This document shows positions 1 through 56,605 of a stretch of 64,000 bases of DNA, piece by piece. This DNA comes from Escherichia coli (GTDB lineage: Bacteria > Pseudomonadota > Gammaproteobacteria > Enterobacterales > Enterobacteriaceae). How positions within the stretch are numbered: the stretch's first letter is position 1; every line of letters begins with the position of its first letter. Location: assembly GCF_044324875.1 (NCBI RefSeq), contig NZ_CP172185.1; one strand, written 5' to 3'. The position numbers and the translations under genes were made by a program. The notes below the pieces were generated by a model. It was not told the origin of the DNA. It saw only the letters and a list, made by a program, of their open reading frames with translations, and did not search any database.

Positions 1-341
1 GCCAGAACAAAAACATAACCTACGTAACCAAAATTATCCCCCAACGCAATTTGCGTTGCGGCTTTCATGGCGTAGGAATCCATTAAATAACCATGAACGC
101 CATAGGCTTTACTTACAGCCTCTGCTACCGGTTTAAATGTTGCGGAGAATTGAAACCCACCAAATAACACCATCATTAATCCCACCATGGCGCTGACCAT
201 ACCGGTAATAATTTTTATTGGCGATTTCTTATCAAGGGCATAACCAATGCCCACCAGCAAACCAATTAATATTGCGGGTTCGGTTAAAAACGTTTGAATA
301 ACATCTATGAATTTGGCAAACATCGTCGGAACGCCCTCCAT
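1..341 (-). CDS. PTS EIIC component, ascorbate (UlaA/SgaT) family, N-terminal 113 codons only; gene runs off the window start
   Basis: Reverse-strand translation MEGVPTMFAKFIDVIQTFLTEPAILIGLLVGIGYALDKK...TFKPVAEAVSKAYGVHGYLMDSYAMKAATQ resembles the UlaA N-terminus as recalled ([29 protein letters not shown]). Start codon ambiguous (341 or 323). Confidence 0.55.
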   Translation of the reverse strand, partial: MEGVPTMFAKFIDVIQTFLTEPAILIGLLVGIGYALDKKSPIKIITGMVSAMVGLMMVLFGGFQFSATFKPVAEAVSKAYGVHGYLMDSYAMKAATQIALGDNFGYVGYVFVL

Positions 342-534
342 AAGCGTACATTTCCGTTGTCAATGCATGAACCTTCTGCTGACGTTAATAATGCTTCAGA
401 TATTTTTTATTTTTCGCTAAGCGATGCCTCTGCAGGTATTCGGTAAACGCACTTTAGTAATCAGAACAGTTCATTTAAAGATCTTATTTGATTATTTGTG
501 ATTTGATTTGCAAAAATAGCGCAATATATAACCA

Positions 535-566
535 TGATCGATCGGTTAATATTAATCGATCGATCA
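535..566. promoter_or_regulatory. 32-bp near-perfect palindrome TGATCGATCGGTTAATATTAATCGATCGATCA with four GATC sites; candidate operator upstream of the PTS gene
   Basis: Read directly; the two 16-bp arms are reverse complements with one mismatch, centred in an AT-rich intergenic region. Confidence 0.4.
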
Positions 567-621
567 CGGTTATTATTTAGAATGGATGTATGCCGGAGTG
601 ATATTGATTTGAGTGATGTAT

Positions 622-1749
622 TTACATTTTTACCAGCAGTGTCAGCACTTCGTAATGCGCGGTGTGGGGGAACATGTCGAAAAGCTGTACCCGTTCGATG
701 CGATAACCCGGCAGCTCGCGGATATCTTTCGCCATGGTTTGGGCGTTACAGCTGGAGTAGATGATAAAACGCGGTGCCATCGTTGAGAGATAATCACATA
801 GCGGTTTACCAATGCCGCGGCGCGGCGGGTTAACCAGCACCAGCTCCGGCACTTCCCCCTGGGCGGTAGCAAACTGAGTGGAGTCCAGCGCCTGAAATTG
901 CAAACGCGTTAAGCCCAGTTCAGCGGCTGACTGCTTCGCACAGGCAATGGCCTCTGGTGCAATTTCGATCCCGGTTAACTGCATGTCAGGCGTCGCGCAG
1001 TGTAAACCAAAGCCCCCCACGCCGCAGAACAGATCCCACATATGGTTTACCGGTAGTTGCCGCACCCAGTCGCGCGCGGTAGCGTAAAGCTGGCTGGCGA
1101 CCGCCGGATTAGTCTGGAAGAAACTTTGCGGACGGATCCACAGCGGCACATCGTTAAAACGATCCGCCAGCGCCTGTTGTTCGGTCAGGTAGATCTCCGT
1201 CTCCCCTTCCATAATCGCCATATGTACCGGCTGAATATTGACGGTAATAACTTTTAGCTGCGGCAGTTGTTCCTGTAACCACGGCAGCGCCTTACGCAGT
1301 TGCGCCAGTTTGGTTTCAGAACGCAGTACAAAGCGCAGCATCATGCCGCCATCGCTCTGGCTTTCGGTCAGCAGAATGTATTTCAGTTCGCCACGTTTGC
1401 GCGCCACGTTGTAAGGCGTAAGCCCGGCGCGAGCAATAAATGGTTTCAGTGCCGCAAAAACGGGCGCAAATGAGGCAGGATAAAGCGGGCAGTCACAAAG
1501 GTCTTCCGGTGTGCCGTCTCGATGCAGCATACCGAGCAGTGGTTTTTCAACGCTACCACTCACCACCATTTTGGCTTTATTACGAAACCCTTGTTCCGGG
1601 CCTGACACCGGCGCGCACCATTCCTCAACCGGAAAGTCGGCGAGCAGATTTTTAAGATCGGCGGTTTTAGCGGAGAGTTGCTCTGGAATCGGCTGCGTTA
1701 TCCACTGACAGGAACGACAGCGACCCGCGTCGTAAAGTGCGCACTGCAT
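622..1749 (-). CDS. rlmC: 23S rRNA (uracil747-C5)-methyltransferase RlmC
   Basis: 375-aa ORF with N-terminal Cys cluster (CRSC) and SAM-methyltransferase core ([10 protein letters not shown]); matches the K-12 RlmC length. Confidence 0.92.
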
Positions 1750-56566: not shown

Positions 56567-56575
56567 ATTTACATT

Positions 56576-56605
56576 TCTGCATGGTTATGCATAACCATGC
56601 AGAAT
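56576..56605 (+). terminator. hairpin after rhtA (perfect palindrome TTCTGCATGGTTATG / CATAACCATGCAGAA)
   Basis: 15-bp perfect inverted repeat 10 nt after the stop; weak T-tract. Confidence 0.6.

Follow-up and report, generated by a model that had tools for sequence, protein, structure and literature searches.

A ula-like PTS-sulfatase operon beside rlmC in Escherichia coli and the covarying GATC-rich palindrome that lies between them

The locus between rlmC and the accessory operon

The stretch analyzed here ("the window") comprises 64,000 nucleotides of Escherichia coli DNA (RefSeq assembly GCF_044324875.1, contig NZ_CP172185.1). It opens inside a gene for an enzyme IIC (EIIC) of the phosphotransferase system (PTS), which is preceded on the same strand by rlmC. 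The region between the two genes holds a block that resembles the promoter of ulaA and, further upstream, a near-perfect palindrome with four GATC sites. The EIIC gene heads an accessory operon, and the palindrome is interpreted below as a probable hairpin at the end of rlmC. The features of the region, in window coordinates, are as follows.

1-341, minus strand: 5' part of the EIIC gene, with the annotated start codon ATG at 341-339 (translation, PF03611, NF009550, annotation in strains 118UI and EDL933)
321-339, minus strand: Shine-Dalgarno sequence GGAGG at 335-339 and the likelier start codon, ATG 323-321, which is Met7 of the annotated protein (five-genus conservation)
448-519, minus strand: putative promoter/operator block of 72 bp with ulaA-promoter architecture (five-genus alignment, two-way profile matches, shuffle control)
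451-456, minus strand: candidate -10 element TAAAGT (ungapped with TAGAGT or TAAAGT of ulaA promoters)
457-493, minus strand: UlaR-operator-like boxes AATCA (489-493), AGATCTT, TGAAC and TGATT (459-463) (match to the AATCA / AATCTTG / TGATTA / TGA skeleton of six ulaA promoters)
494-515, minus strand: CRP-like site TTTTGCAAATCAAATCACAAAT, with half-sites TGCAA (508-512) and TCACA (497-501) (half-sites conserved, 6-nt spacer variable across genera)
528-573: near-perfect palindrome of 46 bp, core 535-566, with GATC starting at 536, 540, 558 and 562 (repeat finder, RNA fold, covariation)
622-1749, minus strand: rlmC, encoding the 23S rRNA m5U747 methyltransferase, with its stop codon at 622-624, 48 nt from the palindrome (open reading frame list, annotation)
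625-632: right junction between island and backbone, within the last rlmC codons (megablast edge at 629-632, comparison with strains STE15 and K-12)

An EIIC of the L-ascorbate PTS family

Window positions 1-341 translate on the minus strand into 113 residues free of stops. The first-pass annotation had taken them for the N-terminus of a UlaA/SgaT-like EIIC, and the assignment holds: the fragment matches the Pfam family EIIC-GAT (PF03611) with an E-value of 1.1e-14 and 54.8 bits against a cut-off of 24.2, a significant similarity to PTS L-Asc EIIC proteins. The full-length protein (447 aa), taken from the 99.9%-identical strain 118UI, scores 326.5 bits against the same family and is 38.7% identical to K-12 UlaA across 432 aa (BLASTP, E 2e-100). 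Its own NCBIfam model is the equivalog NF009550 (963 bits), which names no substrate. The runner-up NCBIfam matches are the ascorbate IIBC and IIC models, and the protein misses the ascorbate-specific models NF009549 (130 bits vs. a cut-off of 890) and NF006919 (321 vs. 380). By these sequence comparisons, the EIIC is a member of the PTS L-Asc (SgaT/UlaA) family and not a UlaA ortholog.

The annotated start codon is probably not the one in use. A GGAGG followed by an ATG is kept in all five genera compared (Escherichia, Salmonella, Silvania, Leclercia and Yokenella), and the ATG in question is the one at 323-321. The annotated ATG at 341-339 is absent or frame-shifted in Silvania, Leclercia and Yokenella and overlaps the conserved GGAGG itself. 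This pattern suggests the second ATG as the true start, which would leave 107 aa within the window and make the RefSeq protein 6 residues too long.

An accessory island that begins inside the last rlmC codons

The EIIC gene is the first of a three-gene, 3.5-kb island encoding EIIC, EIIB and a cytoplasmic sulfatase, of which all but the beginning lies to the left of the window. Strains 118UI and O157:H7 EDL933 share the gene order artJ (+), sulfatase (-), PTS EIIB (-), PTS EIIC (-) and rlmC (-). The first-pass annotation anticipated a complete PTS operon in this direction, with EIIB, EIIA and a regulator. The EIIB gene is there, together with the sulfatase gene; neither an EIIA gene nor a regulator gene lies within the island in the annotation of these two strains.

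The suspicion that this flank is accessory proved correct. Megablast finds window positions 1-700 entire in 566 of 5,426 complete E. coli genomes, always on the chromosome and in single copy, and the remaining matching genomes align just from 629-632 onward, that is, from rlmC. As the first-pass annotation stated, artJ stands beside rlmC in K-12: in MG1655 the two are separated by a 198-bp spacer made of a GC-rich hairpin, two repetitive extragenic palindromic (REP) units and a second hairpin, and the rlmC-artJ region contains neither the EIIC gene nor the palindrome. The island-free strain STE15 has a single hairpin shared between rlmC and artJ. At least three forms of the rlmC-artJ spacer thus occur in E. 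coli: the STE15 hairpin (L003 2470-2500), the K-12 arrangement (L053 2647-2844) and the 3.5-kb island (intergenic part at window 342-632). In STE15 the artJ stop codon is mutated from TAA to TAT, and the annotated artJ open reading frame thereby overlaps the end of rlmC.

The junction has a direct consequence for rlmC. With the island, the protein ends in ...LLVKM*; without it, the end is ...LLVKQ*, followed by the GC-rich hairpin. Because the junction falls inside the last rlmC codons, the island removes the native hairpin of rlmC.

The same island adjoins rlmC in Salmonella enterica, S. arizonae, S. diarizonae and Escherichia whittamii, in two cryptic Escherichia lineages and in a further enterobacterial locus (L010). 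Island alleles of different E. coli lineages are 8-10% divergent over window positions 1-700 (against L002, L004 and L005), and part of this divergence is concentrated at the poorly alignable positions 580-615. Such divergence hints at an old polymorphism, or at repeated recombinational exchange with other Escherichia lineages, and not at one recent gain. The ends of the island each lie close to a copy of a 10-nt direct repeat, TGCCGGAGTG (593-602; L001 11121-11130). As an insertion signature it was rejected; it is not conserved in EDL933-type and Res13-type alleles and is probably due to chance.

The operon promoter resembles that of ulaA

Between the EIIC gene and the palindrome, 15-80 bp closer to the gene than the latter, lies a block whose skeleton is common to the five genera: TTTTGCA-N-TCACAAA-N-AATCA-N-AATCTT-N-TGA-N-TTTGAT-N-TTA-N-GTG. 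An nhmmer profile built only from island promoters aligns along its whole length with the ulaA promoter of K-12 (E 0.0012 for a whole-genome Z of 9.3 Mb); within the ula locus, the ulaG-proximal operators rank next. The reverse comparison drew on the ulaG-ulaA spacers of Klebsiella, Scandinavium, Enterobacter, [Pantoea] beijingensis and two metagenomic enterobacteria, and used a profile of six genuine ulaA promoters. This profile matches the island promoter in every island locus with E-values of 1e-5 to 0.12; in the window it aligns ungapped with 514-448 of the minus strand (17.8 bits, E 0.021). Its only other match in the 198 kb searched has an E-value of 41 and lies on the opposite strand, inside the Leclercia promoter region (L016). 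Among 3,000 dinucleotide shuffles per sequence the maximum was 6-9 bits, vs. 18-27 bits for the real promoters, and none of the 3,000 reached the real scores.

In the ula system, the DeoR-type repressor UlaR binds at four operators within the ulaG/ulaA spacer, and L-ascorbate-6-phosphate releases it (PMC3219644); CRP acts on ula as an activator (bioRxiv 10.1101/2020.09.08.288738). Corresponding elements can be recognized in the island block. The CRP-like site aligns ungapped with the TGCGG-N6-TCACA of ulaA promoters. The window contains 23 matches to the CRP motif, with 25.8 expected, so a match alone is not unusual and the case for CRP rests on conservation and on register with ulaA. The UlaR-like boxes, which enclose a fifth GATC at 480-483, are where the E. 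coli alleles are most diverged, reading TGAACTG where others have TGATTAC. From these alignments we infer CRP and UlaR binding and a transcription start near 444, which would place the CRP-like site at about -61, a class I position, and give a 5' untranslated region of ~120 nt. A sigma-70 consensus scan finds no strong promoter at the block, as expected for an activator-dependent promoter.

The minus-strand segment 448-519 is thus a candidate control region with a class-I CRP site, UlaR-type boxes and a weak -10 element. Most likely, UlaR would repress the operon in trans, cAMP-CRP would activate it, and UlaC would supply the EIIA on which it depends. The EIIC is just 39% identical to UlaA, so the likeness to ulaA is better explained by shared protein-binding sites, or by capture of a ula-type promoter, than by recent duplication.

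The structure of the palindrome is conserved, not its sequence

The palindrome described in the first-pass annotation is real. Its 32-bp core at 535-566 reads TGATCGATCGGTTAATATTAATCGATCGATCA, with 15 of 16 pairs complementary and four GATC sites, and a repeat finder extends it to 24-nt arms (528-573) that are 92% complementary. With a score of 17 it is the best palindrome of the 64-kb window; in 20 composition-preserving shuffled windows the maximum was 11, reached three times. Nowhere else in the window do four GATC sites fall within 30 bp. Three sites within 30 bp occur at three other places (7146, 38465 and 43644). The second-best palindrome of the window is a perfect one of 30 bp, TTCTGCATGGTTATGCATAACCATGCAGAA (56575-56604), located 9 nt past the rhtA stop codon, followed by TTTCTCG and upstream of dps; it appears to be a common terminator hairpin belonging to the K-12 backbone.

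Among the 5,426 E. coli genomes, the 61-nt palindrome region matches just the 566 that carry the island, and no second copy exists in any of them. The identity of the palindrome as a repetitive or mobile element was rejected on this ground. Rfam returns just sub-threshold, miRNA-like hairpin matches.

In every rlmC-adjacent island a dyad occupies this position, between AAATAATAA and TTATATATT. The dyad itself varies. In S. enterica and L010 it is ataaatacaatcaattga-N9-tcaattggttgtatttat, without any GATC, and S. arizonae and S. diarizonae keep GATCGATCG arms around a different 11-nt loop. The four GATC sites are present in every Escherichia allele examined and in S. arizonae, three remain in S. 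diarizonae, and the count is zero in S. enterica and L010. Approximately 7 of 18 arm positions differ between S. enterica and E. coli, every one of them compensated, while the adjacent promoter block is ~100% conserved.

A structural alignment of eight distinct sequences quantifies this pattern: 95% of cells pair, and 7 of the 18 pairs are changed on both sides, although the double changes come mostly from one lineage and so represent few independent covariation events. No shuffle of 500 reached the observed covariation score or percentage paired, and six of 500 reached seven changed pairs. Sliding the partner by one to three columns lowers pairing to 16-52%. Stable folds are predicted throughout. 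For the sense (minus) strand RNA, the values are -29 kcal/mol (z = -6.2) in E. coli, -19.9 kcal/mol (z = -5.9) in S. enterica and -22.7 kcal/mol (z = -5.8) in S. diarizonae; the plus-strand RNA of the E. coli palindrome gives -28.2 kcal/mol (z = -3.9). The structure of the palindrome, not its sequence, is therefore what these alignments indicate to be conserved, and arms that co-vary with pairing kept fit a hairpin and not a half-site for a fixed protein. The mismatches are all of the transition type. An asymmetry of G·U over A·C mismatches was considered as an indicator of the transcribed strand and proved uninformative, the two being balanced between strands.

The dyad does not follow the operon everywhere. 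It is missing in Silvania, Leclercia and Yokenella, despite the three genes (79-91% identity) and the promoter being kept. The gene upstream of the module is divergently transcribed in Silvania and Leclercia. In Yokenella, 4.3 kb of other genes lie between rlmC and the module, and another GC-rich hairpin follows the upstream kinase gene. Since the palindrome is absent where rlmC is not the immediate upstream gene, its distribution across these loci tracks the context in which rlmC reads directly towards the operon, and not the operon itself.

A probable hairpin at the end of rlmC and the alternatives to it

We lean, with modest confidence, towards reading the locus as an accessory ula-like operon preceded by a palindrome whose RNA folds into a hairpin where the rlmC transcript ends. 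Such a hairpin would stand in for the GC-rich hairpin that follows rlmC in island-free strains. It could act as a weak bidirectional terminator, an insulator or a 3'-end stabilizer, and would limit read-through from rlmC into the regulated operon, shielding a repressible promoter. The four GATC sites would be a by-product, since arms built on the self-complementary unit (GATC)2 bring such sites with them. In the rlmC-sense (minus) transcript the stably folding stem-loop comes 48 nt past the stop codon of the co-directional rlmC, with an A-rich tract 5' and a U-rich tract 3' of it. A terminator scan that demands at least 5 T in 8 calls the palindrome on the plus strand, with the tail CGGTTATTAT, and the antisense tail UUAUUAUUU passes its T criterion.

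Several observations weigh against this reading. The sense-strand tail UUAUAUAUU is imperfect, with 6 U in 9, and narrowly fails the T criterion of the scan. The Carafa-type score on the sense strand is ~-16, an approximate value. The stem, 17-21 bp in every species with the dyad, goes much beyond what a terminator requires. The balanced G·U and A·C mismatches show no strand preference and leave room for a role at the DNA level, and template switching can neutrally yield compensatory change in quasi-palindromes. Six of the 566 island genomes are only 80-90% identical over the palindrome region, and the one examined among these six, ESDR8, has an uncompensated deletion. On the promoter side, the ulaA profile matches the block least well in its E. 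coli alleles (E 0.02-0.12). The ESDR8 deletion is as follows.

L054 ~415-440 (window 555-558), right arm: 4-nt deletion of one repeat unit in ESDR8; left arm without a compensating change

With the same approximate formula, the hairpins after rlmC in island-free strains (K-12 and STE15) score -14 to -24 in the rlmC sense and +25 to +30 in the artJ sense. As its score equals that of the native hairpins, the palindrome is no worse than the norm for rlmC; it is not a strong terminator, and efficient intrinsic termination is at most weakly predicted. Here too, we infer termination or stabilization from the form and place of the element.

The uncompensated loss of one 4-nt unit in ESDR8 looks like slippage, and the arms thus appear to behave as a short (GATC)n microsatellite. 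A functionless quasi-palindrome at the junction, derived from a tetranucleotide microsatellite and kept symmetric by template-switch or gene-conversion repair, would account for arms of (GATC)2-type tandem repeats, for a natural variant lacking exactly one unit, for transition-type, strand-balanced mismatches, and for a weak terminator score on a stem longer than any known functional need. It accounts poorly for a dyad that sits at the same position between the same A- and T-tracts across Escherichia, the cryptic clades and all Salmonella subspecies despite turnover of arms and loop, that is present in all 566 island genomes, and that is found only in a context needing a terminator or insulator; we consider this explanation unlikely, though it is the most serious competitor of the rlmC hairpin. 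The length of the helix, about two helical turns in every species, might instead point to an RNA processing or stability element that sets rlmC mRNA apart from operon read-through, either as a substrate of RNase III or by stopping 3' exonucleases. A helix of ~20 bp, longer than typical terminators, fits the size range of RNase III substrates, and covariation favors a constraint at the RNA level. The same features fit a terminator as well, however, and strand-neutral mismatches do not single out RNA; we rate this reading as improbable.

The first-pass annotation proposed a repressor operator, possibly a Dam-methylation-sensitive switch. In its fuller form, a dimeric repressor encoded elsewhere would bind the palindrome, and the four GATC sites would make it an epigenetic ON/OFF switch, at least in Escherichia. 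The near-perfect dyad symmetry, the unusually dense GATC sites and their conservation in the examined Escherichia alleles and S. arizonae speak for it. So does the spacing: GATC sites 22 bp apart lie on one helix face, a geometry that SeqA prefers (PMC2691817). On that geometry, transient SeqA binding after replication would be expected generically and is not evidence for a switch. The conservation data run the other way: S. enterica and L010 have lost every GATC and changed ~7 positions per arm beside a promoter that is ~100% conserved, and three genera that keep module and promoter lack the element altogether. The palindrome is centered ~106 bp upstream of the predicted transcription start (spanning about -85 to -130), upstream of the CRP-like site and outside the core promoter; the island encodes no regulator, and neither another copy nor anything similar turns up elsewhere in E. 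coli genomes. Around 520-580, the best overlapping fits to consensus sequences are OxyR 12/20, Lrp 11/15 and Fur 12/19. The OxyR-like match is in the top 0.1% of window positions, but all three are poor in absolute terms and none is convincing. The loci with undermethylated GATC in Salmonella that are named in an abstract (PMC7708049) do not include this one, where S. enterica has no GATC anyway, and a search of the literature on unmethylated GATC returned no methylome report for the site. Neither the operator nor the switch is upheld, and we assign them, a methylation effect confined to Escherichia included, a small probability. Smaller still is the chance that the palindrome serves as a distal auxiliary operator for UlaR, with DNA looping by the UlaR tetramer as at the ulaG-proximal operators. 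UlaR does bind its four operators as a tetramer (PMC3219644), and the center words GATTAAT or TTGATTAT resemble TGATT boxes; on the other side stand the lack of the dyad in three genera with the same promoter and the unconserved arm sequence. This candidate was rejected because a profile built on the ulaG-proximal operators of seven species misses the palindrome in every locus, its only matches being weak ones to the promoter-proximal boxes.

The conserved PTS-sulfatase module

The EIIC-EIIB-sulfatase triad is intact in 33 of 33 loci examined. The EIIB (PF02302), which adjoins the EIIC in all 33, is 28% identical to UlaB. The sulfatase has PF00884 plus SGSH_C, begins at the catalytic domain without a signal peptide, and contains a C-x-P-x-R formylglycine motif of the Cys type, SMPCMPARRELHTGR. 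It has no close characterized relative, the best PDB matches being partial (E ~1e-21), and the E. coli protein is 61-68% identical to those of Firmicutes and Actinobacteria.

An EIIA is absent in all enterobacterial islands, and a UlaC-like EIIA is adjacent in 10 of 23 loci from Firmicutes and Actinobacteria. These 23 non-enterobacterial loci include seven with a DeoR/UlaR-like regulator, five with ulaG/D/E/F-type genes and two with a formylglycine-generating enzyme. The triad of Neobacillus niacini is embedded in a complete ula-type cluster, which is the clearest genomic link between the sulfatase module and ascorbate catabolism.

L012 2174-13189: Neobacillus niacini cluster of PRD-type regulator, formylglycine-generating enzyme, EIIA, EIIC, EIIB, sulfatase, second EIIB, HPr, and UlaG-, UlaD-, UlaE- and UlaF-like proteins

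An arylsulfotransferase gene stands beside the module in Leclercia, Silvania and L010 (L016 2121-3233 and 4111-5526; L015 4330-5556; L010 7692-9131), and near the Leclercia module is a radical-SAM gene similar to those for anaerobic sulfatase-maturating enzymes. In some hosts the module may thus belong to a wider neighborhood of sulfur-ester metabolism.

Because ula genes surround the same module in several Firmicutes, a sulfated ascorbate is a possible substrate. We tentatively propose, without rating it as probable, that the module carries out PTS-coupled cytoplasmic desulfation of a sulfated ascorbate, most simply L-ascorbate-2-sulfate, and that the operon is a second UlaR target in island-bearing E. 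coli and Salmonella. UlaC, EIIB and EIIC would import and phosphorylate the substrate, and its desulfation in the cytoplasm would then give L-ascorbate-6-phosphate, which is both the substrate of UlaG and the inducer of UlaR. Literature searches found L-ascorbate-2-sulfate solely as a mammalian metabolite (plasma, urine), and searches on ascorbate-2-sulfate and on sulfatase, PTS and ascorbate together found no such pathway. Those on O157, sulfatase-PTS-ascorbate and unmethylated GATC returned nothing on this locus. A pneumococcal PTS-sulfatase locus was set aside as a candidate for the same system; its PTS is of the lactose type and the module is a different one.

What was flagged at first is in itself ordinary: an accessory PTS gene, already annotated in RefSeq, that the window edge truncates, and a hairpin resembling gene-end punctuation. 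A GATC cluster as striking as this one can arise incidentally from a stem based on (GATC)n. The novelty lies in the ula-type promoter and the conserved PTS-sulfatase module, and the palindrome is most likely ordinary gene-end punctuation of unusual composition. In K-12, a strain without this island, UlaR counts as a regulator with a single target (PMC4797297, PMC8249747); the ulaA-like promoter in five genera predicts a strain-specific extra operon for it. Conservation of the triad from Enterobacteria to gut Firmicutes, several of which have complete ula-type clusters and a formylglycine-generating enzyme, points to an uncharacterized pathway for a sulfated ascorbate-like substrate.

Comparison with known systems

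The palindrome shares a stable hairpin soon after a stop codon, with A-rich and T-rich flanks, with the artJ/rlmC hairpin of island-free E. coli, the rhtA hairpin and bidirectional Rho-independent terminators in general. It occupies the place of the native rlmC hairpin, and its stem co-varies. Bidirectional terminators have 5-8 GC-rich pairs, whereas this stem is AT-rich, 17-21 bp long and built of (GATC)n, and its sense U-tract is interrupted.

The Dam-dependent phase-variation switches of pap, agn43, opvAB and gtr likewise have a GATC cluster in the intergenic region upstream of an accessory operon. Those systems contain two alternative binding sites; the GATC sites of the palindrome lie in a hairpin stem, where no overlapping site for a methylation-sensitive regulator was found, and they are wholly lost in S. 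enterica though operon and promoter are conserved.

For the promoter, the closest counterpart is that of ulaA in the divergent ulaG-ulaA region, with an ungapped correspondence over ~66 nt that takes in TTTGC-N-TCACA, AATCA, AATCTT, TGA, TTTGAT and TTA-N-AGTG. The ulaG-ulaA region has a divergent partner promoter; the island promoter has neither a partner nor a match to the ulaG-proximal operator block. Its predicted 5' untranslated region is ~120 nt vs. ~50 nt for ulaA, and the first of its TGATT boxes is degenerate in E. coli. At the level of the operon, the EIIC shares with the UlaA/SgaT of K-12 ulaABC the PF03611 domain, 39% identity, an adjacent UlaB-like EIIB and a promoter layout of CRP site and UlaR boxes. 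Unlike ulaABC, the island operon lacks genes for an EIIA and for catabolism, always includes a cytoplasmic sulfatase gene behind its PTS genes, and within E. coli occurs in only ~10% of strains.

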